A stretch of 64,000 nucleotides of DNA, taken from the IMG/VR virus record IMGVR_UViG_3300035520_001860, positions 1 through 64,000 of that record. One strand, written 5' to 3'. How positions within the stretch are numbered: position 1 is the stretch's first letter; each line of letters starts with the position of its first letter. The position numbers and the translations under genes were made by a program. This document shows positions 42,785-63,374 of this stretch, one piece after another. Source of the stretch: a virus (Duplodnaviria; Caudoviricetes). The notes beneath the pieces were generated by a model. The model was not told where the DNA came from. It did not search any database and saw nothing but the letters and a program-made list of their open reading frames with translations.

Positions 42785-44767
42785 ATGGGAGCACCTAGTA
42801 TTCCAAAGGAAAACATTACAGGTTTAGTTGTAAAGGGATGGATAGTAGATAGGTATGACACAAAAGGTAAATGGGTATGCAAGTGTGAAAAGTGTGGAAA
42901 AGAAGAAATATTCAGAGCATATCATTTAAAAGAAGCACGAGTTAAAATTTGTAATCATTCAAATAATAAGGCTACACATACATTTAAAGATGATTTGACA
43001 GGAAGAACCTTTGGTGAACTAAAAGTAATAGGATTTGATATAGTGAATGGTGTGTGGAAGTGTAAATGTTCATGTGGAAAAGAAGTATACCATACTACAT
43101 ATCAATTAGTAACAAGGGGTGTGAAAACATGTGGACACAGCAGTGGTGTACTAAAAGACCTTAGAGGAAAGAAATTTGGAGAATTAATACCAATTGAATA
43201 CCTAGGTGATAGAACCTGGAAATGTGAGTGTTCTTGTGGAAAAATTACAAACGTTAGAACAACTGACCTTGTGAGTGGAAACACACAATCATGTGGTCAT
43301 CTTAAAACCGGAGCACCTGTAATAGACTTAACAAATCAGCAATTTGGAAACTGGACAGCTTTAAAATATGTTGGAAACAGCTATTGGCAATGTAAGTGTA
43401 CCTGTGGTAATATAGAAAATGTTCATTCATATACATTAAGAAATGGAACATCAACAAGGTGTTCATCACCATTGCATAGAGTAACAGATATAAAAGGAAG
43501 ACAATTTGGTGAGCTACATGTTGAAGAATATACAGGCAATGGATTCTGGAAATGTAAGTGTTCCTGTGGTAAAACAAAAAACATACTTGGAGTCAACTTA
43601 AGAAATGGAAGTACTAGATCATGTGGATGTATGACAGACAAATTATTAAGACAAACATTATTTAGTAGATACAATGAGATATGTCCATCAAGAGTAGATA
43701 ATGCAAGAAGCACACAACAGATAGAAATTTTACATACAAAAGAATTGTTTAATGCACTCCTAGTAGAATACACAATAAGTTATGGAAAACCAGATGCATA
43801 TGCATTAGCAGATATATTAGGCGTTAGTAGATATACAATAGTCAACATGGCTAATAAGTATGATTTACTAGATAAAATAAAAATATACTATAATAGTAGT
43901 AAAGGAGAAAACCAGGTAGCAAACTTTGTAAGAAACATATACAACGGAGAAGTAATACAAAACACTAAGAAAATACTAGATAATGGCAAGGAACTAGATA
44001 TATACATCCCAGATAAACACATCGCAATAGAATTTAATGGAACCTACTGGCATTCCACAATCTACAAAGATAAGTATTATCATCAACAGAAAACATTAGA
44101 TTGTCATAGGCAAGGAATACGATTAATCCATATATTTGAATATGAATGGAATGATGCAGACACACAGCAGAAAATAAAGAATCACTTAGAATTACTATTA
44201 AGTAACAATATACAAACCATTGGAGCACGAAATACAGAAGTAAAAGAAATAGATAAGCAAACAGCAAAAGAGTTTATAGATAAGTACCATCTTCAGAAGT
44301 ATAGTGAGTCATCGGTTAATATAGGATGCTTTTACAACAACGAACTGATTGGAGCATTAACATTAGGTCATCCAAGATTCAACAGTGAGTATCAGTATGA
44401 AATCATAAGATTTTGTTGGAAAGATAGAGTAAAAGTAACAGGTGGCCTAGAGAAATTATTTTCATACTTTATAAAAAATTATCATCCAAAGTCAATAATG
44501 GCATACTCAGATATATCAAAGTTTACTGGCAATTGTTATACAAAGATAGATTTCAAACCAATAAAACAAAATACAATCACAGAACCAAACTACGTATGGG
44601 TTGATATAGAAAGCAACCAAGTACTATCAAGATACCAAACACAAAAGAAGAAGCTAATAGCTAATAATTTAGGTACAGAAGAACAAACAGAAGATGAGAT
44701 AATGGATAATAATGGATTTTTCAAGATATACAACTCAGGTAATATTAAGATGCAATGGGAATACTAA
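42785..44767 (+). CDS. Zn-repeat / HTH / PD-(D/E)XK nuclease / Mom-like GNAT protein, paralog 2 (5 repeats)
   Basis: Five DL.G..FG...W.C.CSCG...SCGH repeats; HTH ALADILGVSRYTI; ELDIYIPDKHIAIEFNGTYWHS; C-terminal GNAT-like domain. Confidence 0.82.
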   Translation: MGAPSIPKENITGLVVKGWIVDRYDTKGKWVCKCEKCGKEEIFRAYHLKEARVKICNHSNNKATHTFKDDLTGRTFGELKVIGFDIVNGVWKCKCSCGKEVYHTTYQLVTRGVKTCGHSSGVLKDLRGKKFGELIPIEYLGDRTWKCECSCGKITNVRTTDLVSGNTQSCGHLKTGAPVIDLTNQQFGNWTALKYVGNSYWQCKCTCGNIENVHSYTLRNGTSTRCSSPLHRVTDIKGRQFGELHVEEYTGNGFWKCKCSCGKTKNILGVNLRNGSTRSCGCMTDKLLRQTLFSRYNEICPSRVDNARSTQQIEILHTKELFNALLVEYTISYGKPDAYALADILGVSRYTIVNMANKYDLLDKIKIYYNSSKGENQVANFVRNIYNGEVIQNTKKILDNGKELDIYIPDKHIAIEFNGTYWHSTIYKDKYYHQQKTLDCHRQGIRLIHIFEYEWNDADTQQKIKNHLELLLSNNIQTIGARNTEVKEIDKQTAKEFIDKYHLQKYSESSVNIGCFYNNELIGALTLGHPRFNSEYQYEIIRFCWKDRVKVTGGLEKLFSYFIKNYHPKSIMAYSDISKFTGNCYTKIDFKPIKQNTITEPNYVWVDIESNQVLSRYQTQKKKLIANNLGTEEQTEDEIMDNNGFFKIYNSGNIKMQWEY

Positions 44768-44789
44768 AGGAAAGACAGGTGGATAAGAG

Positions 44790-46235
44790 TTGAAGATTGA
44801 TTTTCTAGGGAATAAATCATCTAATAGCAACATTAGTTTGGGCACTGAATCATTGGACATTTCGGGATTTGACTTTGATGAACTAGATGACAGCAGCCAA
44901 ATTAATATAATAGAAGATGAGACGAACAAGCCTAATAAGCCTAAAAAGACAAAAAGCAGCATAATAAATAAGTTTTCTCTGCTTCAAAATACTCCAGAAA
45001 TACAGTCTGATGAAGTTATAGATTATTCACAAAATACAGTGGATGCAACAGATTTTGATTTTAGCTTTGATGAGACAGATAAAGAGATTCAAGAAAACAT
45101 TATAAATAACGATGAAGAGGCAGCTGAGGCTAATGCACTTATGCAAAAGATCCTAGCTGAGGATACTATATCAGAACAATCAACAAATGAAGATGACATA
45201 GTTGATATGGAATCAGATGATGGGATAGACTTTGATGAAGAACAAAGCTTAGAGGATGAATTTGACGGTATTGAAATAGATACAGATGATACTATTTCAG
45301 AACAATCAACAAATGATAATGACATTGAAATAGATGATTCAGATTTTGATATAGAAGACGATAGTATTGAAAATGAAGATGATGGAATGAGTTCTATAGA
45401 TGATTTAGATTTTGAGGATGATACATCTGATGAAGAAAGTGAATCAGATTATGATCCAATGTCATCAATAGATAATCTTGATCTTGACTTCGAAGATGAA
45501 GATGAATCAGAAGAGACAAATAATGAGACACAAGTACAAGTATCAAACAATACTGAGGATGATGAAGACTCATTCACACTGGAAGATTTGGACAACATAG
45601 AGGAACCCAGTAATAAAACACACAGTACTATTTCACAACAAATTACAAATAGTAATAACAAAAGTAATGAAATTACAATAGATTTAGAAGATGATTCAGA
45701 CCTAGAAAATGAACTGAATGATTTACAGAATGAGCTCATAATACAAGACAGTGCTAATAAGATAGGGACAACACCAACAAGTACTAATATAAATCAAAGT
45801 ACAAAACAACAGAACACTGATAGCAAACTGAAACATGAGATAGAATCAAATAATGAAAAAGTTTTAGAAATGCAACAAAAGATTGCATTAATGGAGCAAG
45901 AGTTGCAGAGGCTTAAAGGTGGTGGGGCGAAAGAAACTGCATCAAATATAGAGAATAATGTTAATATTAATGATGAAGTTGATAAGATTGACGACCTTAT
46001 TAATGGCAATAAGCCTAAAAAAGAAAACGATATTGGAAAATATGATAGATATGCACTAATGTCTACTGAAGCATTGTACAAAGAAGTTAAACAGTACATG
46101 AAAAAGATGGGAGTAAGTAAGAGACCCATTGATCAGTCAGCATTAAATAACAAGTTTGGAGAGACCAATATCAAAAAGTTAATACAAAAAAGCTATTTAA
46201 TAAAAGCAGGTAAAGGAGTAACAACAGGACGATGA
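44790..46235 (+). CDS. Acidic low-complexity protein with coiled coil and small basic C-terminal (wHTH-like) domain
   Basis: About 250 aa of D/E-rich sequence with DTISEQSTN repeats; C-terminal LYKEVKQYM...KFGETNIKKLIQKSYLI. Confidence 0.7.
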   Translation: MKIDFLGNKSSNSNISLGTESLDISGFDFDELDDSSQINIIEDETNKPNKPKKTKSSIINKFSLLQNTPEIQSDEVIDYSQNTVDATDFDFSFDETDKEIQENIINNDEEAAEANALMQKILAEDTISEQSTNEDDIVDMESDDGIDFDEEQSLEDEFDGIEIDTDDTISEQSTNDNDIEIDDSDFDIEDDSIENEDDGMSSIDDLDFEDDTSDEESESDYDPMSSIDNLDLDFEDEDESEETNNETQVQVSNNTEDDEDSFTLEDLDNIEEPSNKTHSTISQQITNSNNKSNEITIDLEDDSDLENELNDLQNELIIQDSANKIGTTPTSTNINQSTKQQNTDSKLKHEIESNNEKVLEMQQKIALMEQELQRLKGGGAKETASNIENNVNINDEVDKIDDLINGNKPKKENDIGKYDRYALMSTEALYKEVKQYMKKMGVSKRPIDQSALNNKFGETNIKKLIQKSYLIKAGKGVTTGR

Positions 46236-48517
46236 AAAAGAAGAACATTACAAAAGTAATAGCACTACTAAGTGCATCATCTATGATGTTTACTGGATGT
46301 GGTTCATTTATAAGTGAAGATGTTGCATCATATCCGTTAGCATCATCACTTACATCAGCAGAACTTATTGATTACTATGCAGAGGCATTAGATTATGACT
46401 CTGTTGTAACAAGAAACGTTACTGTGCATGAGACAACATATGTAACAAAAGATATTCAAGGTGAAAAAGCTACAAAACTTGAAGAGTTGTATAAGGCTTG
46501 TGAAGATATATTAGGACAAAGTGAATATGAGCCTACTGAAGATTCATTAAAACTTGTATCTGAGGATACATTCTACTATTTAAAAGGTGTGCTTGACAAT
46601 GAAGTATTATCCAACGGTACTATTAAGAATATAACTGGGGCACTTGGATATTATTTTGTTGATGTTGAATACGATTTAAGTGCAAAAACAGCTGGAACAT
46701 TTACTAATTGGGCACAGTTAGTAGGTTTAAACGGAGCAATTAGTTATAATGCATACTTAGATGAATACTCATTAAACAGTTCATATTCACAAGCAATTTG
46801 TCAGGAAGTAAATGAGTACTTTACTGAAAACAAGGTAAATCAGATATTAACATATGATACAACATCATACGAATTGAATATAGCTGAGGGAGATCCTTCA
46901 ACATACAATGCAACTAATAATACAACATCTACTGTCACTGATACAGAATATGATGATGAAACATCAGGAAGTTCAGGTGGAATTACCATTTTAAATGAGC
47001 CTGGTGACGAAGATGAAACAGATACAGATATTTCAGATATTGAAACAACATCACTTGATGATATAGTAGATGATGATGAAGATACAGTAGCATCTGATGA
47101 TGAAGAGGTTGTAGAAGATGATGAAGATATAATATCTACTGATAATACAACTACAGTAGTTAGTACTGGTGTAGCGGCTACAACAAGCACTGTAATGTCA
47201 ACCTTATCAAGTAGTAGTGGAGCATATACAATAGTAACACCTACTGAAAGAAGAAACTGGTTAGACGTTGGGTTATTAAATAAGTTAGTAGGTTCATCTA
47301 TTGAAAGCAAGGCAACAATGCCAGAACTTTCTCAAGTATATAATATACCTGAAGCAGAAGGTACAATATCAGGATATGGTATTGCAAACTCCGGTTCAAA
47401 CGGATTAAAGATATTTGGATATGACAGAGATAAGTTATCTGGAACAGCAACTTTAAGATATGTGTTTAAAGATGATAGTACAGGTACTGGAGATATATTA
47501 GGAACAAACATTTATGTTACAGAGGAACAGATAACAAACGGTGTTACAGTATCTTCAAGTACACCTTATATAGCAGAGTTCCTTGAGAGTGAATTTGAAC
47601 AGATTGTTGAAAGATCTGACAGAGTTCAAGTTAACTGTGACTTAGCTGGTGCATTATCAAGTGACTTGTATGAAGATATTGGTATTGGGCTACTTATTGG
47701 ATTCAAAGATAAAAATACAAATACAACAAAGTATATGTCAAAAATACGTCAGGTTTTAGGTAGTGATAAATCTAATAATGCTTACTTATTAGAGGTTGAA
47801 ACAACTACAATTGATGGACCAAAGGATATAGATATTTATGGAACATATAAAGAAATTTATTATATTGTAGTTCAGCAGCAGGATACAGAATTTAAGATTA
47901 TTGATATGCTGAGAACATCAAGAACAATGACTCATGAGCCTGACATTGATCCTGATAGCAATATTACAAAGAGATTAATTGCATTGAACCTTGCAGGTGA
48001 AATCAGTGATGATAATAAGACATCAATCAAGAGTTTAATGAGTGCACTGTATACAGCTGGAACAAACAGAATACTGTACGGACCTAAAGATATAGAAGCA
48101 AACGGTGAGACAATAACCATTGAAAAAGGTATGTATGACTGCTTCAGTGATGATACATCAATATTATCAAGTGATGATAAGGAATACATAAACTCTTCTA
48201 TTAGAAGTATATTAACAGGTATACATGGTACTGATACATCAGCATATTACTCTGGAGATGTAGTAGAGTGGATAGGCGGCTATGATAACCAAGCAGAGTT
48301 CGTAACACAAGAAACAGTTACTTACAGTGGATATGATGACTACTACGAAATGACAGTTTACTACTTAGTATCCATTGAGAATGATGAATGGGTAATTGAT
48401 GAAAGAACTGTTATAGATGGTGGACTTGTAGATGGAAGTGGAAATAGTCTTGAAACAGAAGATACAAGCTCAGATGTTTCAACAGAAACAACTGAATCAA
48501 CAGAAGTAACAGAATAA
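46232..48517 (+). CDS. Large lipoprotein, candidate VirB8/TcpC-like with NTF2-type domains
   Basis: Lipobox FTGC; two domain-terminal strand pairs (YIVVQQQDTEFKIID, YYLVSIENDEWVIDE) typical of NTF2-like folds; ATGA overlap with the upstream gene. Confidence 0.55.
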   Translation: MKKKNITKVIALLSASSMMFTGCGSFISEDVASYPLASSLTSAELIDYYAEALDYDSVVTRNVTVHETTYVTKDIQGEKATKLEELYKACEDILGQSEYEPTEDSLKLVSEDTFYYLKGVLDNEVLSNGTIKNITGALGYYFVDVEYDLSAKTAGTFTNWAQLVGLNGAISYNAYLDEYSLNSSYSQAICQEVNEYFTENKVNQILTYDTTSYELNIAEGDPSTYNATNNTTSTVTDTEYDDETSGSSGGITILNEPGDEDETDTDISDIETTSLDDIVDDDEDTVASDDEEVVEDDEDIISTDNTTTVVSTGVAATTSTVMSTLSSSSGAYTIVTPTERRNWLDVGLLNKLVGSSIESKATMPELSQVYNIPEAEGTISGYGIANSGSNGLKIFGYDRDKLSGTATLRYVFKDDSTGTGDILGTNIYVTEEQITNGVTVSSSTPYIAEFLESEFEQIVERSDRVQVNCDLAGALSSDLYEDIGIGLLIGFKDKNTNTTKYMSKIRQVLGSDKSNNAYLLEVETTTIDGPKDIDIYGTYKEIYYIVVQQQDTEFKIIDMLRTSRTMTHEPDIDPDSNITKRLIALNLAGEISDDNKTSIKSLMSALYTAGTNRILYGPKDIEANGETITIEKGMYDCFSDDTSILSSDDKEYINSSIRSILTGIHGTDTSAYYSGDVVEWIGGYDNQAEFVTQETVTYSGYDDYYEMTVYYLVSIENDEWVIDERTVIDGGLVDGSGNSLETEDTSSDVSTETTESTEVTE

Positions 48518-48538
48518 GTACTAAATAAATCAGTATTT

Positions 48539-48570
48539 AAAGAGGTGGATGTTTAATCCACCTCTTTTTT
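48539..48570 (+). terminator. Rho-independent terminator
   Basis: AAAGAGGTGGAT / ATCCACCTCTTT followed by a T-run. Confidence 0.88.
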
Positions 48571-48615
48571 ATATATTATAATAAATTATTTAGTATTTTA
48601 TGAGAGGATAAAGAT

Positions 48616-48786
48616 ATGAGAGATAACAGTACAGAATTAGCAACAAACAGTAATAATTATGCTGTAGATAATTCTAAACTTAGAAATATGACATTAAAAG
48701 AATTGTTAGACACTTTAAAAGATGTAAGAAAAAAGATACATGAGGGCAGCATGTCAAATAAAGAGTTAATAGAGTGCAGATGTTGA
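48616..48786 (+). CDS. Small hypothetical protein (56 aa; absent from the ORF track)
   Basis: GAGAGGA RBS; MRDNSTELATNSNNYAVDNSKLRNMTLKELLDTLKDVRKKIHEGSMSNKELIECRC*. Confidence 0.5.
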   Translation: MRDNSTELATNSNNYAVDNSKLRNMTLKELLDTLKDVRKKIHEGSMSNKELIECRC

Positions 48787-48834
48787 GTTAAAATACATAG
48801 AGTATAACAAAGGAAAGAGAGGAAAAGAACAGTA

Positions 48835-49092
48835 ATGATTGATATTGTAGTACCAACAAGAGTATGGAAAGCAGCAGATATAGTAAGACACTTTAAAGGA
48901 AATATGTACATGATAGTGTGCATCGCAAAAGACAGTACAGATTTAAGAGACAAAGTAGTATATAAACATATAGGTGGAAATGGAGAACTTTGGGTAAGAG
49001 ATTTGGAAGAGTTTAATAGTGAAGTAGACCATGAGAAGTATCCAGATGTAAAGCAGAAATACAGATTTGAACTTGTGGAAACACATGATTAA
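48835..49092 (+). CDS. DUF1653-family protein
   Basis: RHFKGNMY...VVY...LWVR...F.SEVDHEKYPDVKQKYRFE signature. Confidence 0.88.
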   Translation: MIDIVVPTRVWKAADIVRHFKGNMYMIVCIAKDSTDLRDKVVYKHIGGNGELWVRDLEEFNSEVDHEKYPDVKQKYRFELVETHD

Positions 49093-49112
49093 TTAGAGGG
49101 GTAGACAATAAA

Positions 49113-50867
49113 ATGGCAGTACTAAACATAATTAAAAAGGACCTAATACCTAAGTATTATGTGTGTGAATTAAGCAAAGATAAGAGTGTAATTGTACATG
49201 AGAATTTGCTAGATAGTAACTTTACTAAAGTAAGAATGGACAAGAGAACTATAGATTTAACAGAAAGTAAGTTTGGTAATTGGCATGTGCATTATTATCT
49301 TGGGGATAGGAAGTGGTTATGTGAGTGTTCATGTGGTAGGCTATGTGCAGTTATTGGATATAATCTAAGTTCTGGTAGATCAACATCATGTGGGCATGAA
49401 AACTATGATGATTTAACAGGTAAGCGGTTCGGAGATTGGCAGGTACTAGAATATGCAGGAACTGAGCATGGAATGACTAGATGGTTATGTGAGTGTTCAT
49501 GCGGAAATAAAAAAGAGGTATATGCAAAAGTACTTACAAATGGGAGGAGTAAGTCATGTGGACATAGTACTAATGCTTTTAATGACCTTACTGGAAAGCA
49601 ATTTGGAGAATGGAGTGTTTTAGAGTATGAGGGGGACCACTATTATAAGTGTCAATGCTCCTGTGGCAAAATAAAAAGCGTAGCTGGGTATTCTTTAACA
49701 CGAGGAGATAGCTTATCTTGTGGGCATAAATCAGCAGCCTGTAGAAAAGATACAATGATGCAGAGATACGGAGACACAGTTCCTGGAAAAAATAGAGAGC
49801 AATGGCAAATAGATATATTATCATCAAAGGAGATATTGGAAGCTTACATAATACACAAAGGGTATAAGCCAACAGCAGAAGAGTTAGCTAAGGAACTTGG
49901 TATAAATAAAACTAATATGTATAGAAATATACATAAGTATGGTATAGAGAACCTTATACTCATAGACTATAATTCATCTAAATATGAAAGAGAGATTGTA
50001 GAATTACTGAATAGTTGGGGAATATGCAACATTGAGGTTAGAGATAAAAAACATGTACCTGGTTTCGAACTAGATATATACATCCCAGACAAAAAACTAG
50101 CAATAGAGTTTAATGGTAGTTATTGGCACTCAGATTTATATAAAGATAAATACTATCATCAAGAAAAAACAATCGAATGTGCAAAACGACACATACAATT
50201 AATTCACATATTTGAATATGAATGGAATGATAACGATACTAAAGAAAAATTAATTAATCTACTGTATACAAGACTAGTTAACACAAAAAATTATATAGGA
50301 GCAAGGGAAACAGTAGTAACATTTATAGATAGTAGTATAGCAAAAGAATTTTGCAATAAATATCATTTGCATGGGTATAGTAATTCAAGTATAAATATAG
50401 GATGCTATTATAAATCAGATTTAATAGGGGTTTTAACATTTGGAAAACCAAGATTTAACAGTAATTATCAATACGAATTAATAAGACTGTGCTGGAAAGA
50501 TGATATAAAGGTACACGGCGGATTAGAAAAAATGTTTACATTATTTATAAAAAGTTACAATGTAAATAATATTATCAGTTATTGTGATATATCAAAGTTT
50601 AATGGAAATGCATATTTGAGACTTGGTTTTACAGTGCAAAATATAAGTGAGCCAAACTATATATGGTATAATTTAAGTAAAAAAACTAAACTAACAAGAT
50701 ATAAAACTCAGAAACATAAATTAGTAGAGGCAGGATTTGGCGATGCAAACAGTACAGAGTCAGATATAATGGAAGACCTAGACTATGTAAAAATACATGA
50801 TAGTGGAAACTTAGTTTTAGAATGGAGAAATCAAAATGGCAGTCAAAGTACCAACAATATGGAATGA
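49113..50867 (+). CDS. Zn-repeat / HTH / PD-(D/E)XK nuclease / Mom-like GNAT protein, paralog 3 (3 repeats)
   Basis: Three repeats; HTH ELAKELGINKTNM; ELDIYIPDKKLAIEFNGSYWHS; GNAT-like C-terminus. Confidence 0.82.
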   Translation: MAVLNIIKKDLIPKYYVCELSKDKSVIVHENLLDSNFTKVRMDKRTIDLTESKFGNWHVHYYLGDRKWLCECSCGRLCAVIGYNLSSGRSTSCGHENYDDLTGKRFGDWQVLEYAGTEHGMTRWLCECSCGNKKEVYAKVLTNGRSKSCGHSTNAFNDLTGKQFGEWSVLEYEGDHYYKCQCSCGKIKSVAGYSLTRGDSLSCGHKSAACRKDTMMQRYGDTVPGKNREQWQIDILSSKEILEAYIIHKGYKPTAEELAKELGINKTNMYRNIHKYGIENLILIDYNSSKYEREIVELLNSWGICNIEVRDKKHVPGFELDIYIPDKKLAIEFNGSYWHSDLYKDKYYHQEKTIECAKRHIQLIHIFEYEWNDNDTKEKLINLLYTRLVNTKNYIGARETVVTFIDSSIAKEFCNKYHLHGYSNSSINIGCYYKSDLIGVLTFGKPRFNSNYQYELIRLCWKDDIKVHGGLEKMFTLFIKSYNVNNIISYCDISKFNGNAYLRLGFTVQNISEPNYIWYNLSKKTKLTRYKTQKHKLVEAGFGDANSTESDIMEDLDYVKIHDSGNLVLEWRNQNGSQSTNNME

Positions 50868-52467
50868 TATGTATATAGGAAATATGAGTGAACCACAAGC
50901 AGAACTAATAATGCAGACAAGACAATCCAATGTTATTCCAAATTTAAAGAAAATGCTATTTAATTTTCCTTATGAGCTCATACAACAGAGTATAGAAGAA
51001 CAACAAAGTATAAGAAATATAATTAAAAGAGATAATATAGACTATACACAATACATATCAGAATTAAGAGATTACCAAACAGTGGGGACTGCATTCATGT
51101 ATTTATCACCAAGAAGCATAATCGCCGATGGGTGTGGGCTTGGGAAAACTGCTGAGGTCAGCGCTCTTATCAACTGGTTACTTTATAAAGGTGAAATGAC
51201 AAGATTTCTTATGGCTGTTGAAAATAGTGCTGTTGGTCAAACACAGGCTGAAATTATGAGATTTACTGGACTTTATGTCGTTGCATTACCATCAGAGGCA
51301 GCAAAGCTAAAGAAAGTAATAGAGCACACTGATTGGACAAAAGTTGACGGTATTGTAATTAAGCACAGTACATTAAGAAGTGATGCATTCAGTAAATGGT
51401 TAGCACTGAATATCAATTCTGAAGGGCTATGTAATTTATTTGACACTTTCTTTCTTGATGAATCATCAGTAATAAAGAATGATACAACAAAAATGTATCA
51501 GTATACAAAGAACATATGTCAAATAGTCAAGAGAGTTCATCTTATGAACGCTACTACTTTTGAAACTAGCATTGTTGATATTTATAATCAAATTGATATG
51601 ATGGACCAAACACTGTTACCAAAGAAGTGGAGAATAGAAAAAGAGTTCTGTACATTTACACGTACACAGTACTGGACAAAAGAAAATGGCAAAGCTAAAT
51701 TAAACTGGAGGCATGAACGATCTGGATATAAGAATCAAGCAATATTTAAGGAATCATTGAAACTCGTTTATTTTGGCAGATGTAAAGCAGACATTGGCAT
51801 GGATTTACCACATGTTTACAAAGTGTTTGAAGTAGAGCCAACAAATGCTATGAGTGTTGGGTTATCCAAAGGGTATAGATACAGTGAATTACTTAATTGT
51901 CCAAGTCTAATTCCAGAAGCAAACATACCAATGGATAGAAAGAATGTTCCAAAACTTGATAGGTTATGTGACCTTGTAGAGAATGACTTTTCAGATTCAA
52001 GTATAATGATATATTGTTTTCACATAGAGGCACAGAGAGTAATAGCAGATGAACTTGCAAAGATTGGTAGGAAACCAGTAATACTTAATGGAAGTATCAC
52101 AGATTCAAATGAGAGATACAAGATTCAACAAGATTTTAACAATGGGATTTATGATGTAATCATAACAAACATTAAGAAATCATTAAACTTATATGGTGGG
52201 GATGTTTGTATATTTTATAGCATGGAAACAAATCCTAGTAAGTCTTTTCAAATAGCATCTCGTATAGATAGAAATGTCTCTGATGATATAAAAACATTCG
52301 TTATGTTATTGTATAAAGGCACTGATGAGTATAAGTTCTTTACTACAACAGTTAAGCAGCGAGCAAAAGATGCTAGGGATCTTACAATTGATGCTAAAAC
52401 AACAGTAGATTTCTTCTTTGAATCAATGATGGCAGAGGAAACAGCCGAACTAAATGGTAAAGCCTAA
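50836..52467 (+). CDS. SNF2-family helicase/translocase
   Basis: LRDYQ, IIADGCGLGKT, LDES, SLNL, Q..SRIDR motifs. Confidence 0.85.
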   Translation: MAVKVPTIWNDMYIGNMSEPQAELIMQTRQSNVIPNLKKMLFNFPYELIQQSIEEQQSIRNIIKRDNIDYTQYISELRDYQTVGTAFMYLSPRSIIADGCGLGKTAEVSALINWLLYKGEMTRFLMAVENSAVGQTQAEIMRFTGLYVVALPSEAAKLKKVIEHTDWTKVDGIVIKHSTLRSDAFSKWLALNINSEGLCNLFDTFFLDESSVIKNDTTKMYQYTKNICQIVKRVHLMNATTFETSIVDIYNQIDMMDQTLLPKKWRIEKEFCTFTRTQYWTKENGKAKLNWRHERSGYKNQAIFKESLKLVYFGRCKADIGMDLPHVYKVFEVEPTNAMSVGLSKGYRYSELLNCPSLIPEANIPMDRKNVPKLDRLCDLVENDFSDSSIMIYCFHIEAQRVIADELAKIGRKPVILNGSITDSNERYKIQQDFNNGIYDVIITNIKKSLNLYGGDVCIFYSMETNPSKSFQIASRIDRNVSDDIKTFVMLLYKGTDEYKFFTTTVKQRAKDARDLTIDAKTTVDFFFESMMAEETAELNGKA

Positions 52468-52525
52468 TTATAGACTTTTTCAATAAAAAATAGTAATTAA
52501 ACTTTTTAAAGTGGAGGACACAATA

Positions 52526-53305: not shown

Positions 53306-53404
53306 TAAACAGATTTAATTATAAGTACTGTGAAGATAATTTGCAGTACTTATAATTTTGCTTTTTAGTATATTAAGGAAAGATAAATTTTTAAGGAGAC
53401 AAAA

Positions 53405-54852: not shown

Positions 54853-54886
54853 TAGCAATATGATAGTAAACAATCATTATAAACAA

Positions 54887-54926
54887 AAAATAAACTAGTT
54901 AGGAATAGACCTGACTAGTTTATTTT
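54887..54926. terminator. Bidirectional terminator-like hairpin
   Basis: AAAATAAACTAGTTAGG / CCTGACTAGTTTATTTT. Confidence 0.7.
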
Positions 54927-55114
54927 ATACTCAAAAATAAGTTAAAAGTTTTAAACTAGTTTTGAAAAAGCAAGAACTAGTTTGAAGTTTTGCTATGACA
55001 ATTAAAGATACTCATAATTTACAATTTAAAGTCTTTTTTGATAGGCACTCAAAGATACATTGGTATGAAAATTGGGTAACAATTAAAAAATTGATTAAGG
55101 ATAAGGTGGTTCAA

Positions 55115-56029
55115 ATGATTAATCCTAACGTACATTATAGTGTGACTGGCAGATATATGGATGGTCAAAAGATAATTGGGTATCACTTAGTAGGTGAAGA
55201 TGGAAGCCAGTCTCAAGAGAGTAAAGATAGAGTAATATACTTAATAAAACAAGATATAATCACTAACATGAGAGTTCAAACAGGACCAGATGGTGATATT
55301 ATACTTAGAGGAAAAGGAATAAACCTTAATAAATTACCTGTATATGACCCAAATAAGGATAAATATCGTAATACAGAGAGTTCACAAACAGTAGCAAATA
55401 CACATGTTAGTACTAAAAATTCAACAGTACAAGGTGCAAGTCCAATGGGACAGTACACAATAGTACGAAGAATAATGTTTAAGAGTCAGTGTCTTGGATA
55501 TGAATTGAGAGATCATAGTGGACAGGTAATAAGAAAGAAAAGAGCAGACGTTATAAAATTAGCAGCACAGAGATTAATTAGTAACGCAATAGCACAGAGA
55601 TATACAAGAGAGGGAAGTGGAACAACTGAACTTATTCTGAGAGGTCAAGGGTGTGATTTAAACAAGTTACCTATATTGATTGTAAATGAACAGGGTAAAA
55701 TAGTTGATCCAACTAAAGACACTAGTGGACTTACAGTTAGAAGCGCTTACATGAAACATAGTGGAGTAATCATAGATACTATACATGATAAGAAAGTTCC
55801 TTTCAAAGCTGGAGACTTTATTATTTGTGGACCTAACGGTGAAATATTAATAAAGGACAGAGGAAGTGTAGAAAGGGAGTATAGAAAAGATACTGAGAGT
55901 CAAAGTGCAGTATGTGATGATTACTTAAGTATAACTAAGAGCTACTTTATTGAGGTATTTGGTAACAAACCGATTCAATTATCAGATCAGTTTGTTAGGA
56001 GATGGATTATACTAAAGCCCGCGAGTTAA
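55115..56029 (+). CDS. Hypothetical protein with an internally duplicated ~75-aa domain
   Basis: Two copies of Y...R......GY.L....G......VI.L.....I.N...Q......ILRG.G..LNKLP; AAGGTGG RBS favours ATG 55115. Confidence 0.75.
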   Translation: MINPNVHYSVTGRYMDGQKIIGYHLVGEDGSQSQESKDRVIYLIKQDIITNMRVQTGPDGDIILRGKGINLNKLPVYDPNKDKYRNTESSQTVANTHVSTKNSTVQGASPMGQYTIVRRIMFKSQCLGYELRDHSGQVIRKKRADVIKLAAQRLISNAIAQRYTREGSGTTELILRGQGCDLNKLPILIVNEQGKIVDPTKDTSGLTVRSAYMKHSGVIIDTIHDKKVPFKAGDFIICGPNGEILIKDRGSVEREYRKDTESQSAVCDDYLSITKSYFIEVFGNKPIQLSDQFVRRWIILKPAS

Positions 56030-56050
56030 GAATGGACATAAATAATTGAG

Positions 56051-56093
56051 AATAAATAGCATCTAGCATTTTAGCTGGGTGCTATTTATTTTT
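56051..56093 (+). terminator. Rho-independent terminator
   Basis: AATAAATAGCATCTAGC / GCTGGGTGCTATTTATT followed by TTT. Confidence 0.85.
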
Positions 56094-56500
56094 GTGTAAA
56101 ATAACCTATTAGTATAGCAGTAGTGTACTATTAAAAAACAATTTACAGTGTTCCTACAATTTTTAAAAATTATAATCATAAATAATAGATTAGTGGTTAA
56201 TAAAAATTAAAAATTTAACAACAAAATACTATTTTACAGCGTCAAACAATTAATATATGTAGCATTTGGTAAAAATTGAGTAAGCACCAAAGGTTAAAAT
56301 TTTGGGTTGATTTTTGAAAAAATTTCTGTGTAGGTTAATTTGAAAAGATTATGAGATAATATACTATTACAAGACTGTAGTACAAAACATATTAGCAATT
56401 TTACTATTTTAAATACCAATTACAAATAAATATAACCTAAATAAATACAGTTTTATATGATAGGTAGTTTTAATTTTTACATTTTATTATGGAGAATACT

Positions 56501-59425
56501 ATGAGTAAGATTGATATTAAGACTTTAAAATTGACAGATGACCAAAAAGAAGTTTATAATGAAGCTATGATTTCACTTGCAAATCATAATCAGGCTGCTA
56601 TACATTTAGTGACAAGTGGTGGTAAGTCATATATCTTAGCAGCTATTCTTGATACTCTTAAGAAGCAGAAGAAGAAAAGACGTAAGAATCTAAGTGTATT
56701 ATACATATCTACTGCTGGGTCATGTACTAACTTTTTAGAGTGTATGTCAGATGAGTATTGGGATGATGTACTGTCAGTCATTAACTATACTCAGCTAAGT
56801 GTCGATGAGAAATATGTGGATAAACTTAATAAAAAGGATTTTGACATCATAGTTCTTGACGAAGCACATCTTGCTCTTGCAGAAAAAACATACAAAGGTG
56901 TATTATATACAGAGAGTAAATATCCAGATGCAGCTATAATTGCAATGTCTGCAAACAACAGAAGATATACAGGCAGAAAGCTTGTATTTGAAATACTGAC
57001 ACCTGAACTTGAAGTTGGTGTAGACTACAATAATAGAGGGTTGAAGTATGCAATAGCAAATGATAAAATATGCAAGTTTAATTACAAGTGCTGTGATATT
57101 AAAAGACTTAAAACATATTGTGATGTGTTTGAACAACTAAGACAAAGAGGATTGATTTATGTAGATGCAGATGATATACTGAATAAAGCAAGAGATATAG
57201 TAGACAGATATAAGAAGAATGCATTTAATAAATTAGGAGTACAGATAAGACAAGATTTGTCAGATATTGGTATTGATGGAAGCAAAGGGGATAGATGGTT
57301 TATCTTCTTTAATACAATAGCTGAACTTGAGGAATCAGCAAGTGCTGTGCAAGATATGTTTGAAACAGCATATAATAGTCAAAATATCACTGTAAAATGT
57401 CATCATTATCATGGCAAAAACAGAGATGTAGAGGATATCGAAAAGATTTTAACAGGTAAATCAACTCCTTATACAGTTGATGTTATAATGACATGTGAAA
57501 AGGGTGGAATGAGCTTTCATCCAGAGAATACACGTGGAATTATTATGAACAGAAAAAGTGGTTCAGAAGTTAAAATCACTCAGCAGTTGGGTAGAACACT
57601 TCAGATTAAAGAGTTATGTTCAGATTGTAAATTGATTTATGACCTTGTTGGAAATAATGAAACAATTGATATAACTCAAACAATCTTTAATGGAAAGCAG
57701 CAGCCTGATGAAAGAGATATTATATCTTGGCTTAATATGAGTACTAACACAGATAAAATGATGGAGTCGCTTGAGAAAGAATATGGTGACACAGGAGAGT
57801 ATTCAACAATTCAAGATGTAGAACTAGAAGACATTCTATCACAATTTGATGAATATAAAGAAAAAGTTGAAAACATACTTTATGCAAAAATCATAGCAAA
57901 CTTATTTGATGTGTATAAGAGTGAACATGATGGAGTTATGAGTGAGCATCCATTAGCTATACTTCGATCTTATGATAAGAGGGCTGAACTCGATAAGAAA
58001 TATGGATTAGCAGATGCATTTTCTGCTTTACAGAAGTTGTTTATTCAAGGCTACTTTGGAAATTATACCATGGATGCAGTACCAGAAGGTAGCGATTTCT
58101 ATAAGATTTATAGTTTACTTGGTGACACATTGTATATGACATCAAAGTGTAATGCTGATGCAACATGGGAGGATAAAGAATACGAAGAAACAGCTAATAT
58201 TAAACTTGTAGAGTTACAGGAGATAGCACTTAAAGTTAAGGGTTATGACTATGACTATGCAAAGAGAATATCACATACAAAGGATTTAAACAATAAGATT
58301 ACAAGACTAAGACAGCTTAATCTTGAAGGTAGACTATCTGAATCTTATCAGAAATACTGCATGAGAAACAAGATAGATATAGATGGAACTTATGTAAACT
58401 TGATAAATGCAGTATTAAGTCTGCCAGAAGCAGATAAGTTTGAAAAGATTACCAAAGAATTTAAAGCCATTGTTTCAAAGATGACAAACATTGAAACACA
58501 GATAGCATGTGGCATAAAAGTAGATGAAATGAGAGATGACTTATTAAAAGTATTTGCAATGCATCAGATATTTAGTATCAGATACAGAAGGCATACTTAT
58601 GGTAATCAGGCTATTATTGCAATAAACGTTAGATTTAGAAATATAATCATTTTAAGAAATAAAATGCTATCTCGTGATGATGTACTAACAGCACAGAAAG
58701 ATATAATGACAATAGTAAGAATAAGAATGTGCAAAGGGGATGCATCACTTAGCAGTAGAATAAATAAGGATTACGAGTTAGCAATGATGCAGTTGTCCAT
58801 TAGAAATGAGAATGGAGCAATTGGAGAATATGAATCGGTCGTACTAGATACATTAGGTATGAGATTTAGAGGTAAGTATGACAGCAAGATTAGAGACTTA
58901 ATAGATCATACTCCATTTGGTATTGCATATAATCAACTGTTAGAAAGCGGTTCTGAAACAGCTTATAACAAGCTTATGGAATACAAAATTGAGAACATGC
59001 CATTGTATTGTAGAAAACTACTTAATACGAAAAAATTCAAGCAGTCAACTGATGAAGTAAAGAGTAACAAATTACTTGTAAAAGACAGTAAGGAGATTAA
59101 ACAGCTTGTGTCAAATTTAGTATTTCCATCTGAACAAGATATAAATGACCTTAAACATAAAGTCGAAACAGAAGAATTTGATCCAAGAAATTTGATTAAG
59201 TATGCAATACCAGAGAAAGTTTATTTAAGTAACAAGAAGTTTCTTGATAGAGCAATTACTGAACAGTGGGGCAGTATAGAGAATAATGTACAGAATATTA
59301 TTCTCTCTATCATTAAGAAAAATACAATGTGTACTGGAGATATTGTAGAATGTCTGTATACTAATAAACTTATACCAGAGATTCAGATGGAATTTGCAGA
59401 CAATGTTATTAAAGTTACACAGTAA
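56501..59425 (+). CDS. Superfamily 2 helicase (ResIII/DEAH-like) with a long helical C-terminal region
   Basis: LTDDQ, TSGGKS, LDEAH, MSAN, QQLGRTL; GGAG RBS favours ATG 56501. Confidence 0.78.
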   Translation: MSKIDIKTLKLTDDQKEVYNEAMISLANHNQAAIHLVTSGGKSYILAAILDTLKKQKKKRRKNLSVLYISTAGSCTNFLECMSDEYWDDVLSVINYTQLSVDEKYVDKLNKKDFDIIVLDEAHLALAEKTYKGVLYTESKYPDAAIIAMSANNRRYTGRKLVFEILTPELEVGVDYNNRGLKYAIANDKICKFNYKCCDIKRLKTYCDVFEQLRQRGLIYVDADDILNKARDIVDRYKKNAFNKLGVQIRQDLSDIGIDGSKGDRWFIFFNTIAELEESASAVQDMFETAYNSQNITVKCHHYHGKNRDVEDIEKILTGKSTPYTVDVIMTCEKGGMSFHPENTRGIIMNRKSGSEVKITQQLGRTLQIKELCSDCKLIYDLVGNNETIDITQTIFNGKQQPDERDIISWLNMSTNTDKMMESLEKEYGDTGEYSTIQDVELEDILSQFDEYKEKVENILYAKIIANLFDVYKSEHDGVMSEHPLAILRSYDKRAELDKKYGLADAFSALQKLFIQGYFGNYTMDAVPEGSDFYKIYSLLGDTLYMTSKCNADATWEDKEYEETANIKLVELQEIALKVKGYDYDYAKRISHTKDLNNKITRLRQLNLEGRLSESYQKYCMRNKIDIDGTYVNLINAVLSLPEADKFEKITKEFKAIVSKMTNIETQIACGIKVDEMRDDLLKVFAMHQIFSIRYRRHTYGNQAIIAINVRFRNIIILRNKMLSRDDVLTAQKDIMTIVRIRMCKGDASLSSRINKDYELAMMQLSIRNENGAIGEYESVVLDTLGMRFRGKYDSKIRDLIDHTPFGIAYNQLLESGSETAYNKLMEYKIENMPLYCRKLLNTKKFKQSTDEVKSNKLLVKDSKEIKQLVSNLVFPSEQDINDLKHKVETEEFDPRNLIKYAIPEKVYLSNKKFLDRAITEQWGSIENNVQNIILSIIKKNTMCTGDIVECLYTNKLIPEIQMEFADNVIKVTQ

Positions 59426-59649
59426 CTATATTTTAACAAGATACAAAACAATTATACAGTGAAATTATAAAAATTGACACTAATAAATATAGGGTAATCT
59501 GTGCTAATTTTTAGTATACAGTATTATATATTTGAATAATCTGGGCAAACAGCATTATTGTATAATAAGTATGATTTATTATTAGTTAATTATTTTAAAA
59601 AATAATTGATTAAAACATGTAAAATTTATTTAGGAGGACATACGGAAAG

Positions 59650-61659
59650 ATGGCTAATCAAGTACAAACTGACAATCGTAACATGAAACGATTGAAAGAC
59701 GAACAACAGGTTAGACAAAGACCAGCGCCTATATTCGGAACCAATGATGAAAAAGGTGCATTTCATTCAGTAGATGAGGTTATAGCAAACTCTATTGATG
59801 AGGCACGCGAGGGATATGGTAAGGAAATTGATATTACTGTTGAAGAAGGAAATGTAGTCACAGTAGAAGATAGTGGACGTGGACTTCCAATGGATTGGAA
59901 CGAAGCAGAGAAGATGTACAACTGGGAGTTAGCACTTTGTACATTGTATGCATCAGGTAAATATGATGCATCTCAGTATGGACAGTCACTTGGACTTAAT
60001 GGACTTGGACTTACAGCAACACAGTATGCATCAGACTTCATGGAAGTATGGTCAACATATGGTGGTAAGACAAGATACATGCAGTTCTCAAAAGGAAAAC
60101 CAGTAGGTCAGATGAAAATAATGAACCCAGTTAGAGAGGGAACAGGTACAAAGATTCGATTCAGACCAGACCCAGAAGTATTCCCAGCATTGAGATATAA
60201 TAAACTTACACCTGATATGTTTGTTGATATGCTTAATAGTCAAGCAATGCTTTTAGATGGACTTGCAATTAACTTTAAACATTGTGACTTGACAAACACA
60301 ATTGTGTTTAAGTACGATGGTGGAATGGCAGAGTATGTAGATAGAGTAGTTGAAGACAAGAAAATATTACCAGAGGCTGCATACTTCTTTGATAGTGAAA
60401 CAGGAACAGATGACCCAGAACATGATGCTATGAATGACATTCCAAACTATAAGGTTGATATGCGATTAGCATTTAACTTCTGTAGAGATAGAAGCGTTGT
60501 AAGAGTATATCATAACGGTTCAAACATGTTCGAGGGTGGAGTTACAGTAGATGGATTACAAAGAGGTATTGTTGGTGCTTTCTCTGATGTAGCAAAGGCT
60601 ACTGGTAAGATAAGTAAATCAGACAGATTTTCATACAAAGACATTGAGAGCATGCTAATCTGTGTAGCTAGTACAGATGCACCAGGTAATAGAACATGGT
60701 TTAAAAACCAGACAAAAGGAGCAATCAATAACCCATTCATTGGTAAGGCATTTGCACAGTTTGTATATAACAAAATACGTTACTGGTTAGAACAGAATAC
60801 AGCTTTAGCTACAAAAGTAATTGCAGAAGCAGTTATCAATAAAAAAGCTCGTGAGGAAGCTGCAGAAGTATCTAAGAAAGTCGTTCGTTCTTTAAGTAAA
60901 TCAGTTAACTTTTCAAACAAGCCAAAAGATTTTAGAGATTGTTCTAGTAAGAATATCTTTGAAAGAGAGCTATATATCGTAGAAGGACGTTCCGCACTCG
61001 GTAGTGTAAAACTAGCATGTAATCCAAAATTTCAGGCTGTAATGCCTGTTAGGGGCAAGCCTATCAACTGTCTAAAGGAAAACATAACAAGAGTACTCAA
61101 TAACGATATTATTATTGACTTATACAGAGTATTTGGTTGTGGAATGGAAGTTAAGCATAAGAACTTGGAGGATTTACCAAAGTTTGATATTACAAAACTC
61201 AACTGGGGAAAATTAATCATATGTACTGATGCCGATGTTGATGGAAACCATATCAGATGTTTGTTAATTACAATGTTCTATATTCTTAGTCCTAGTCTGC
61301 TAAAGGCTGGTAAAGTTTATATTGCAGAAACTCCATTGTATGAGATGACATACAAGAAAGAAACAAAATTTGCATTTGATGATAATGAGAAAGAGCAAGT
61401 GCTTGCTTACTTCAAAAACATGGGAGCAAAGGATGGACAGGTAAAGATTCAGCGTTCTAAGGGATTAGGTGAGAACGATCCTGAGATGATGAGTTTATCA
61501 ACAATGAATCCTGAGACAAGACGACTCATTAGAGTTGAATATCCTGAGAATGACTCTGATTTAAGAACATACTTCAATGCATTACTTGGAGATGACCTTG
61601 AAGCAAGACGAGCATTAATTGATGAGTATTTTGATTTAGTTGATGGAAACTTAGACTAA
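59650..61659 (+). CDS. gyrB: Type IIA topoisomerase subunit B (GyrB/ParE)
   Basis: VRQRP, EVIANSIDE, DSGRGLP, GLNGLG, VEGRSA, PVRGK, DADVDG, RSKGLGE. Confidence 0.92.
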   Translation: MANQVQTDNRNMKRLKDEQQVRQRPAPIFGTNDEKGAFHSVDEVIANSIDEAREGYGKEIDITVEEGNVVTVEDSGRGLPMDWNEAEKMYNWELALCTLYASGKYDASQYGQSLGLNGLGLTATQYASDFMEVWSTYGGKTRYMQFSKGKPVGQMKIMNPVREGTGTKIRFRPDPEVFPALRYNKLTPDMFVDMLNSQAMLLDGLAINFKHCDLTNTIVFKYDGGMAEYVDRVVEDKKILPEAAYFFDSETGTDDPEHDAMNDIPNYKVDMRLAFNFCRDRSVVRVYHNGSNMFEGGVTVDGLQRGIVGAFSDVAKATGKISKSDRFSYKDIESMLICVASTDAPGNRTWFKNQTKGAINNPFIGKAFAQFVYNKIRYWLEQNTALATKVIAEAVINKKAREEAAEVSKKVVRSLSKSVNFSNKPKDFRDCSSKNIFERELYIVEGRSALGSVKLACNPKFQAVMPVRGKPINCLKENITRVLNNDIIIDLYRVFGCGMEVKHKNLEDLPKFDITKLNWGKLIICTDADVDGNHIRCLLITMFYILSPSLLKAGKVYIAETPLYEMTYKKETKFAFDDNEKEQVLAYFKNMGAKDGQVKIQRSKGLGENDPEMMSLSTMNPETRRLIRVEYPENDSDLRTYFNALLGDDLEARRALIDEYFDLVDGNLD

Positions 61660-61680
61660 TAATCAAATATAAATGAGATT

Positions 61681-61721
61681 AAAAATAGGAGCATATATTA
61701 AAAATATGTTCCTATTTTTTT
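61681..61721 (+). terminator. Rho-independent terminator
   Basis: AAAAATAGGAGCATAT / ATATGTTCCTATTTTT. Confidence 0.82.
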
Positions 61722-61781
61722 ACATTGTTAATAATATTATTATAAAATCAATTTTTTAAAATTTAGAAACAGGAGATTAAA

Positions 61782-63374
61782 ATGCAACCGACTTTTCAAG
61801 ATTTGACTGGACAAAAATTTGGTGAAATGACAGTAGTTGGATATAACAGGGATGTAAGAAGATGGATTTGTGTTTGTGATAAAGGGCACTATTGTTACAA
61901 GCAAACAACACACTTGAAAACAAGACATAATATATGTAAACAGTGTAAAGCACAAAAAGATGCTTCATTAGTTGGAAGTAAAATAGGAGAATTGACAGTA
62001 CTAAAACAGGTATCAAGCCAAGAATATTTATGTCAATGTTCATGTGGAAAGACATGTATAAAACAAAAAGGACACTTAGTAGGTGGATATGTAAAATCAT
62101 GTGGACATTTGAACAAAAATAAATTTGAGAATTTAAGAGGTCAAAGATTTGGAAAACTTGTAGCAGAAGAGTATGTATCAAAAGAGGCAGGTTGGAAATG
62201 CAAGTGTGATTGCGGTAATATAGTAAATGCTCTACCAGCTAATCTAAAAAACGGAAGTACAGCTTCATGTGGATGTAGTAATCCATATAAATTAATAGAT
62301 ATAACAAACAAGAGATTTGGAAAATTAGTAGCAGTAAGACACATATACAGAGGATTGTGGGAGTGCCAGTGTGATTGCGGTAACATATGCGAAAAACAAT
62401 CATATGATTTAAGAAATAACAGAGTTATATCATGTGGATGTGAGTCTAGCGAATCATATAAAGAGTTTCAGTTATATGAATATATAAGGTCAATATACAA
62501 CGGAGAAATTATAAAGCATAACAAAACAATATTAAAAGGTAAAGAGATAGATATATACATACCAGAAAAACATATTGCAATAGAGTTCAACGGTAACTAT
62601 TGGCATTCTTTAAAAGAAAAAAGATATCATCAAGATAAAACAATAGACTGCGTAAAACAGAAGATAAGACTGATTCATATTTTTGAGTATGAATGGGATA
62701 ACGATATTATACAAGAAAAATTAAAAATATACTTAAAGACAATATTAAATGAAAGTGAAGCTAAAGTAATATATGCAAGAAACACAAATGTACACGAGAT
62801 AAATCAGGATATAGCACAAGAATTTTTAAATAAGTATCATTTACAAGGATATGCATCATCTACAATTAACATAGGATGTTATTATAATGAACAACTGATT
62901 GGAATGATGACATTTGGTAAACCAAGATTTAACAACTCCTACGAATATGAAATAGTAAGACTATGTTGGTTGCCTACAATACATGTAGTTGGGGGCTTGG
63001 AAAAATTATTTAGCTATTTCCTTACAAAATATAATCCACAATCTATTATAACCTATGTAGACATTTCCAAGTTTACAGGTAATTCATATTTAAGAATAGG
63101 GTTTAAGTTGATACTACCAGACCCTATAACTAAGCCAAACTATGTATGGGTATCACACCATGGCAACACAGTAAAAAAACGGTATCAAACACAAAAAGCA
63201 GACCTTGTTAAAAATGGACTTGGAACAGAAGACCAAACCGAAGATGAGATTATGGAATCATTAGGTTATTATAAAATATATGATTGTGGTAATATCAAAC
63301 TAGAGTGGGTTAAGGAGGATAACAATAAATGGGAAATCACGACTATATACAAAAGGGAAATAACGGTGGTATAG
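61782..63374 (+). CDS. Zn-repeat / PD-(D/E)XK nuclease / Mom-like GNAT protein, paralog 4 (4 repeats, no HTH)
   Basis: Four repeats; EIDIYIPEKHIAIEFNGNYWHS; GNAT-like C-terminus. Confidence 0.82.
   Translation: MQPTFQDLTGQKFGEMTVVGYNRDVRRWICVCDKGHYCYKQTTHLKTRHNICKQCKAQKDASLVGSKIGELTVLKQVSSQEYLCQCSCGKTCIKQKGHLVGGYVKSCGHLNKNKFENLRGQRFGKLVAEEYVSKEAGWKCKCDCGNIVNALPANLKNGSTASCGCSNPYKLIDITNKRFGKLVAVRHIYRGLWECQCDCGNICEKQSYDLRNNRVISCGCESSESYKEFQLYEYIRSIYNGEIIKHNKTILKGKEIDIYIPEKHIAIEFNGNYWHSLKEKRYHQDKTIDCVKQKIRLIHIFEYEWDNDIIQEKLKIYLKTILNESEAKVIYARNTNVHEINQDIAQEFLNKYHLQGYASSTINIGCYYNEQLIGMMTFGKPRFNNSYEYEIVRLCWLPTIHVVGGLEKLFSYFLTKYNPQSIITYVDISKFTGNSYLRIGFKLILPDPITKPNYVWVSHHGNTVKKRYQTQKADLVKNGLGTEDQTEDEIMESLGYYKIYDCGNIKLEWVKEDNNKWEITTIYKREITVV

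Follow-up and report, generated by a model that had tools for sequence, protein, structure and literature searches.

Arrays of a cysteine-rich module at the N-terminus of Hef-type phage homing endonucleases and a candidate target-choice patch within it

Introduction

Phage homing endonucleases of the Hef type were assigned by Taylor et al. to the Vsr-like EDxHD family of I-Bth0305I, whose catalytic residues are Asp196, Asn208 and His213 and whose specificity is mostly credited to the nuclease domain, the N-terminal contacts being largely non-specific (PMC3239194). In T5orf172 homing endonucleases, tandem arrays of CapR-, DUF723- and DUF4397-type domains were described as 'beads on a string', and the beads were proposed to set specificity jointly and to recombine (Barth 2023, PMC10448857). 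CapR itself has the cysteine spacing CxxC-24/26-CxC, binds a specific operator and loses DNA binding upon mutation of its cysteines (Netter 2021, PMC8096241). Here we analyse four paralogous genes located on a 64,000-nucleotide stretch of viral DNA (positions 1 to 64,000 of IMG/VR record IMGVR_UViG_3300035520_001860; hereafter the window). Their products carry a total of 13 repeats of a cysteine-rich module of about 55 amino acids.

The class of these genes is ordinary, since Hef-type enzymes as well as tandem zinc-finger arrays in phage homing endonucleases have already been described. What is undescribed is the module itself. Pfam has no model for it, and no structure has been solved or clearly matches, yet its profile matches about 91,000 protein clusters. 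Its partners are nucleases of at least four families, helix-turn-helix (HTH) domains and helicases. According to the original prediction for this locus, each repeat consists of a conserved scaffold and four hypervariable residues preceding an invariant Leu. These residues were thought to follow the -1, 1, 2, 3, L4 layout of a C2H2 recognition helix and to form a possibly programmable code. We favour, with moderate confidence, an account in which the modules form a zinc-stapled, DNA-binding array of beads at the N-terminus of a homing endonuclease, and in which a variable patch overlapping the four residues likely aids target choice.

Results and Discussion

Assignment of the repeat genes to Hef-type homing endonucleases

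All four paralogues in the window matched PHROG 3339 ('homing endonuclease'), with E-values from 1e-65 to 1e-89. The gene pA (42785..44767, plus strand; 660 aa; E=1.8e-88 against PHROG 3339) encodes five zinc modules of about 55 aa (42806..43645), a helical linker, a Vsr-like EDxHD nuclease core (43952..44194) and a Mom-like (GNAT-like) C-terminal domain (44207..44764). Residues 401-466 of pA match the catalytic domain of I-Bth0305I (PDB 3r3p, E=9e-4), and E403, D405, E416, N418 and H423, the counterparts of the I-Bth0305I active site in the alignment, do not vary across 42 orthologues. The Mom-like C-terminal third scored 25.4 bits against PF25680 (Mom), just under the Pfam cut-off of 27.1 bits, and also matched PHROG 1384. 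Searches of phage records with tblastn matched genes annotated as Hef-like homing endonuclease, found in Vibrio and Dickeya phages, or as F-LimX. Because of the PHROG 3339, 3r3p, tblastn and active-site matches, the repeat genes are assigned to a known class, the free-standing Hef / I-Bth0305I-type (EDxHD, Vsr-like) homing endonuclease genes.

Like I-Bth0305I and Hef, the gene products have a Vsr-like catalytic core, in which acidic, Asn and His residues are conserved, and ahead of it an N-terminal DNA-binding region, and they are encoded by free-standing genes between conserved phage genes. I-Bth0305I differs in that it is intron-encoded, carries NUMOD/HTH motifs and lacks a Mom-like domain, whereas the window genes have arrays of zinc modules. 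A further difference is that the catalytic residues, kept in pA, in the paralogues pB and pC and in a fifth paralogue beyond the window, are lost in the paralogue p1.

Architecture and predicted fold of the module

A hidden Markov model (HMM) of the module was built from the repeats; it covers 1,468 copies in 250 homologous proteins, of which 1,075 were retained after removal of those at least 70% identical. Residues are numbered below by the columns (col) of this model, so that the four residues of the original prediction (-1, +1, +2, +3) are cols 57-60 and the Leu (+4) is col 61. Conserved columns are D24, G27, F30, G31, a hydrophobic strand, W44, C46, C48, C50, G51, V56, L61, G64, S68, C69, G70 and [C/H]71. 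The resulting cysteine pattern is CxCxC-18-Cx[H/C]; a CxxC variant was seen in the window only in the first repeat of pA and in p1. C48 and C50 likely form a zinc knuckle that is paired with C69 and [C/H]71, as the sequence pattern suggests, while C46, the first cysteine of CxCxC, may be structural.

In the AlphaFold2 predictions each module of about 55 aa consists of three strands and then a helix, 5-6 residues long. For one module, modelled from an alignment of 29 repeats, the predicted local distance difference test (pLDDT) score was 87.2, with strands at residues 13-20, 23-28 and 33-37 and the helix at 38-43. In the full-length model of pA (pLDDT 86.8) the five modules are alike and are joined by linkers with pLDDT 47-69. 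Most linkers are 4-12 residues long. The module period is 54-56 aa in the window, and its mode over the 250 proteins is 54 aa. The mean net charge per module is +2.5, with Lys or Arg in 46-57% of repeats at cols 47, 62 and 67, and acidic residues are few across cols 56-74.

All 13 five-residue segments listed in the original prediction are present, once each in their genes; in pA these are RAYHL (42914-42928), TTYQL (43094-43108), RTTDL (43256-43270), HSYTL (43424-43438) and LGVNL (43586-43600), all on the plus strand. The Leu at col 61 is invariant in the 13 repeats and is found in 968 of the 1,075 non-redundant repeats from the 250 proteins. In the models strand 3 ends with col 57, the helix begins with a turn made of cols 58-60, and L61, a predicted buried core residue, is inside the helix, which ends at col 63, immediately before G64. 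The layout borrowed from C2H2 fingers is geometrically apt, since col 57 closes strand 3 and cols 58-60 make the first turn of the helix. The predicted helix start applies to cols 58-60, but not to col 57, which still belongs to the strand. The match also stops short at the helix itself, which has 6 residues instead of 10-12 and holds no metal ligand.

The top co-varying pair in the module is cols 32 and 49 (0.79 bits of excess mutual information, z=43). It resembles a charge pair between strand 1 and the residue that separates the second from the third cysteine.

Distribution and partner domains

No match covering the module was found in Pfam, NCBIfam or PDB sequences; DPH3, at E ~1, was all that a profile search of the PDB sequences returned. 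Foldseek against the PDB yielded partial Tudor/SH3 matches only (best E=0.1), and the best VIA-align score, in a wide and a second-look search, was Z 5.0, to SH3/Tudor/KOW/PWWP-like barrels. We do not claim this fold family for the module, because Z-scores of 4-5 are within the range expected for a common arrangement. A profile of the 13 repeats matched 91,165 cluster representatives at E <=1e-3 and 27,492 at E <=1e-10, with up to 13 matched stretches per protein. A full-length alignment search recovered modules in only 3 open reading frames (ORFs) among 79 viral loci, and no short stand-alone proteins were found with a single repeat as query.

Partner domains were the Hef nuclease, HTH_3 and SF2 helicases, and ESM Atlas clusters with a similar module shape (TM 0.84-0.89) carried HNH, T5orf172 or HTH_31. 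There are arrays of 9-13 modules without a nuclease, arrays joined only to an HTH domain, and arrays of 9-11 modules followed only by a short tail of about 63 aa. A DNA-binding role is suggested because arrays stand N-terminal on nucleases of four families, are fused to HTH domains and helicases, and co-occur with CapR-type domains.

Several long arrays were seen individually. P0122 joins an array of 11-13 modules to a Cro/C1-type HTH, and P0137 and P0145 join arrays of 11-13 modules to SF2 helicase domains of the ResIII/DEAD type. P0070 (L110:188-2410; 740 aa) has ten modules with a very uniform scaffold and is without a nuclease; differences between its modules concentrate at cols 55-67, and its gene adjoins an IS200/IS605-type Y1 transposase gene (PF01797).

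Comparison with described zinc modules and repeat systems

Of the relatives described so far, the CapR homology domain (PF21817) comes nearest, together with two related zinc fingers, DUF723 and DUF4397. CapR-type modules and those of the window are small and Cys-rich, stand in tandem N-terminal to a homing nuclease and are proposed to choose the target jointly. In both, the first Cys pair lies at a strand end and a second, CxC-type pair follows about 20 residues on. They differ in spacing, CxCxC-18-Cx[H/C] in the window as opposed to CxxC-24/26-CxC, and in the partner nuclease, which is EDxHD/Hef rather than T5orf172. ESM Atlas feature neighbours of the module include CapR clusters (score 0.92), and a CapR scan of 29 repeats matched 2 of them, at E 0.016 or worse. 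PF05265 (DUF723) and PF14344 (DUF4397) gave no match on the genome.

The window profile matched gp131 of Vibrio phage ICP1 at E=5.7e-12, just upstream of a CapR-type domain in the same ORF; ICP1 proteins carry up to four CapR-type domains each. The gp131 protein (L109:454-1644), annotated 'endonuclease', opens with a window-type module ending in CxxC, which is followed by CapR-type zinc domains. Hence, the module exists in a well-studied phage without a separate name, and, with both types present in gp131, CapR-type and window-type modules are used interchangeably in one array.

With C2H2 fingers of the Kruppel/Zif268 type the module shares a tandem arrangement of small zinc modules and variable polar residues before and in the first helix turn, with a buried Leu at +4. 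A C2H2 finger has the pattern Cx2-4C...Hx3-5H, with both His on a helix of 10-12 residues, a beta-beta-alpha fold and a length of about 28 aa. The window module, by contrast, has CxCxC...Cx[H/C], three strands and a 6-residue helix without ligands, over about 55 aa. Pfam scans of the genome and of the repeats gave no match to zf-C2H2. With C2H2 recognition helices the module has only the layout in common, by convergence; the original description of a cysteine-rich, presumably zinc-binding module that is not of the C2H2 type agrees with both the ligand pattern and these scans. TALE-like repeats are near-identical and differ at one or two code residues, for which a small alphabet is used, unlike the window repeats, which are 27-47% identical to one another and carry many different four-mers.

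The CSL zinc finger of DPH3/Kti11 (PF05207) has its elements in the same order: first an aromatic residue and CxCG where a strand ends, next another strand and a short helix that contains xxxLxxG, and last a second Cys pair. Precomputed Pfam matches to PF05207 exist on two homologues, and 2 of the 29 repeats matched it at E=0.031; there was no match on the genome, and the matches to DPH3 chains (E ~1) were insignificant. DPH3 differs in being a single-domain electron carrier and not a DNA binder.

Variability of the four-residue segment

The entropy of cols 57-60 among the 1,075 repeats was 3.84, 3.33, 3.64 and 3.52 bits, compared with 3.70 bits at col 65, 3.57 at col 55, 3.55 at cols 42-43 and 3.46 at col 39. 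Cols 57-60 are the most diverse contiguous stretch of the folded core and col 57 is its most diverse single column. However, the stretch is not in a class of its own, because cols 65, 55, 42-43 and 39 are comparably diverse. About two-thirds of repeats have Gly, Ser, Thr or Ala at col 58, and about a quarter have Tyr at col 59. When the genome's own 18 repeats were ranked by entropy, cols 43, 65, 60, 57, 42, 39, 36 and 63 came first; cols 58 and 59 were mid-ranking, with Tyr the commonest residue at col 59. Cols 57 and 60 are thus near the top among the genome's own repeats, but the contrast drawn between a conserved scaffold and a hypervariable segment of four residues is overstated, considering the low identity between repeats, the rank of cols 58 and 59 and the diversity of other columns.

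The 1,075 repeats contain 924 distinct four-mers with no preferred combinations, and no co-variation was found among the variable positions. Because of the number of four-mers and the lack of co-variation, there is no small code alphabet.

Among the first six repeats of the ten-module protein P0070, for which dS is about 0.8-1.2, dN/dS was 0.12 in the scaffold, 0.39 at cols 55-67 and 0.53 at cols 57-60. The ratio in the patch is thus raised 3-4 times over the scaffold value but stays below 1. No positive selection was detected among the repeats of this array, values of dN/dS around 1 being seen only where dS was saturated.

Two apparent effects did not last. With 10 clusters of repeats at least 90% identical, cols 57-60 had seemed less polymorphic than other variable columns (p=0.06; p=0.018 for the wider patch), which was gone when 20 clusters were used (p=0.61). 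A pair-weighted count had pointed to cols 59, 60, 62 and 65 as changing fast between closely related repeats; it was driven by one family of 70 repeats, and it was dropped because counting each of 90 families once removed the effect.

Repeat-specific constraint in orthologues

Forty-two orthologous five-repeat proteins, 40-58% identical, were compared using, for each column, the ratio of identity between repeats of the same index to that between repeats of different index. Most columns had a ratio of 1.0-1.2. The highest values were 2.5 at col 57, 2.3 at col 60 and 2.2 at col 65, followed by cols 66, 71, 72, 42, 59 and 63, whereas the equally diverse cols 43, 54 and 55 reached only 1.1-1.3. 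Permutation-corrected mutual information singled out the same set of columns, which recurs in groups of proteins with 4, 6 and 7 repeats. Col 57 is the most repeat-specific column in these orthologues, and together with col 65 it carries modest repeat-specific information.

Each array ends in a module of a conserved subtype, with Leu57, Gly58, Asn60, Asn63, Ser65, Thr66 and Cys in place of His at col 71. It was found in pA (43478-43645), in pC (62289-62456) and as the last repeat of the orthologues, among which it is conserved far above internal modules. This module may dock on the next domain, or may read a conserved feature beside the cleavage site.

A DNA-binding bead array as the favoured explanation

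In the account we favour, the modules would fold independently, each stapled by zinc and binding DNA, and would be strung on short flexible linkers N-terminal to a Hef / I-Bth0305I-type enzyme. The array would bind a long asymmetric site beside the cleavage site and so position the Vsr-like nuclease; in pA and pB an HTH-like linker would bind the site together with the array. A polar, acid-poor patch, in which strand 3 ends, the helix starts and the loop after the helix lies, would most likely contribute to target choice. It comprises cols 55, 57, 59, 60, 62, 63 and 65, given as -1, +2, +3, +5, +6 and +8 around the buried Leu, and col 57 would be the strongest candidate for a specificity residue. 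If the patch sets preference module by module, this would explain the quick retargeting of these selfish genes, and the module could serve as a new, compact scaffold in the design of DNA binders. Otherwise the modules would be another generic DNA-holding arm.

A number of results weigh against this account. In 20 clusters of repeats at least 90% identical (117 repeats), polymorphism was 8.1% at cols 57-60 and 9.2% at other high-entropy columns (p=0.61). Part of the repeat-specific signal arises because the last repeat is a conserved subtype; with that repeat left out, the ratio is 1.7-1.8 at col 57, 1.5-1.6 at col 65 and 1.4-1.6 at col 42, and col 60 drops out. The absolute identity of patch positions among orthologues is low (0.16-0.23). 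The beta1-beta2 hairpin (cols 42-43), equally variable and repeat-specific, could be the reading element or part of it. We infer exposure and groove contact of the patch from residue polarity only. The Pfam CapR model reached 13.6-16.5 bits in the window, against a cut-off of 24.2 bits, and did so in the first repeat of pA only, and an hhalign comparison with nine ICP1 CapR repeats was not significant (probability 2.6%). Formal homology between the window module and CapR is not established.

A possible but less probable alternative is that cols 57-60 are weakly constrained surface residues. In this view the modules would hold the DNA backbone without sequence preference, or would be spacers or rulers, as the I-TevI zinc finger is, and the source of specificity would be the nuclease, the HTH-like linker or the sheet/hairpin face. 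The polymorphism figures given above are what weakly constrained residues would produce. So are the frequencies obtained when repeats at least 80% identical were placed in 90 independent groups: cols 57-60 varied in 16-22% of these groups and cols 29, 37, 39, 41, 52 and 65 in 27-37%, the upper value at col 41. By both measures, variability beyond that of other loops, as put forward in the original prediction, fails at short distance. That dN/dS remains below 1, that the variable positions do not co-vary and that I-Bth0305I owes its specificity mostly to the nuclease domain (PMC3239194) also speak for this alternative. It does not readily account for cols 57 and 65, which are 1.5-2.5 times more alike between repeats of the same index, as against 1.1-1.3 times for cols 43, 54 and 55. 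Moreover, nuclease-free arrays of 9-13 modules and arrays joined only to an HTH domain are hard to explain as mere spacers, and CapR, the nearest relative, binds a specific operator (PMC8096241).

A contribution of the four-residue segment to target choice is plausible, but no readable code of the C2H2 kind has been demonstrated. We think it rather doubtful that this structurally unsolved family of modules of about 55 aa (91,165 clusters, arrays of up to 13) reads DNA modularly, each bead taking a short word mainly through col 57, cols 59 and 60 and the loop cols 63 and 65, in arrays that could be re-assorted or redesigned for new sites. If true, C2H2 fingers and TALEs would be joined by a third natural code for DNA recognition by protein alone.

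The strictly C2H2-like reading, in which the helix enters the major groove and bases are read through -1, +2, +3 (and +6) as a modular, programmable code, appears unlikely. The match of layout (a pre-helix residue, the first turn and the buried Leu at +4), the top rank of cols 57 and 60 for diversity and repeat specificity, and the regular period with short linkers are all consistent with it. Yet the helix has only about 6 residues, and the period ranges across families from 50 to 70 aa or more. The 924 four-mers without preferred combinations and the lack of a signal of positive selection also argue against such a code, and the scaffolds have diverged, so that the residues stand in different contexts.

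That the modules serve protein-protein or RNA contacts instead of DNA is highly improbable. In favour of such contacts are the best fold matches (Z 4-5), to small barrels of the SH3/Tudor/KOW type that often have peptides or RNA as ligands, and the weak pattern match to the CSL zinc finger of DPH3. However, the barrel matches lie within the range of a common arrangement, the modules are basic and almost always fused to DNA-acting domains (four nuclease families, HTH, helicases), and in ICP1 gp131 a window-type module stands beside a CapR-type DNA-binding domain.

The other paralogues and the genomic setting

Besides pA, the window holds three paralogues, all on the plus strand. The gene p1 (16327..17361; 344 aa) has a single module (16336-16503) with the five-mer ESYKL (16444-16458). 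Its Vsr-like motif is without the conserved Asp, Glu, Asn-Gly-x-Tyr-Trp-His and Tyr-His-Gln, while its Mom-like domain is intact. Judged from these losses, p1 is probably a nuclease-dead copy and possibly a domesticated one.

The gene pB (49113..50867; 584 aa) has three modules (49245-49742) with the five-mers IGYNL (49353-49367), YAKVL (49521-49535) and AGYSL (49683-49697). Between zinc array and nuclease, helical regions were seen at residues 282-360 of pA and 234-278 of pB, the latter with weak HTH matches (HTH_20, LexA_DNA_bind and TetR_N; E 0.016-0.36). The gene pC (61782..63374; 530 aa) has four modules (61794-62456), the first of them degenerate, with the five-mers QTTHL (61902-61916), QKGHL (62064-62078), LPANL (62232-62246) and QSYDL (62397-62411). 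It has no helical linker, and the paralogues therefore differ in their accessory DNA-binding parts. The fifth paralogue lies outside the window (G000 74503-76395; L008:976-2868); it is 630 aa long, has five modules and keeps its nuclease motif intact.

The source IMG/VR record is 133,586 bp long, classed as a provirus, with an estimated completeness of 59%. GC content of the window is low (about 32%), and all its ORFs of at least 150 aa that are not nested in a longer plus-strand ORF are on the plus strand. Among the neighbouring genes are those for a clamp loader, for helicases and for a type II topoisomerase-like protein. The element that holds the repeat genes is large, low in GC and phage-like. 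At its 3' end pB runs 32 nt (50836-50867) into the start of a downstream SNF2-like helicase ORF.

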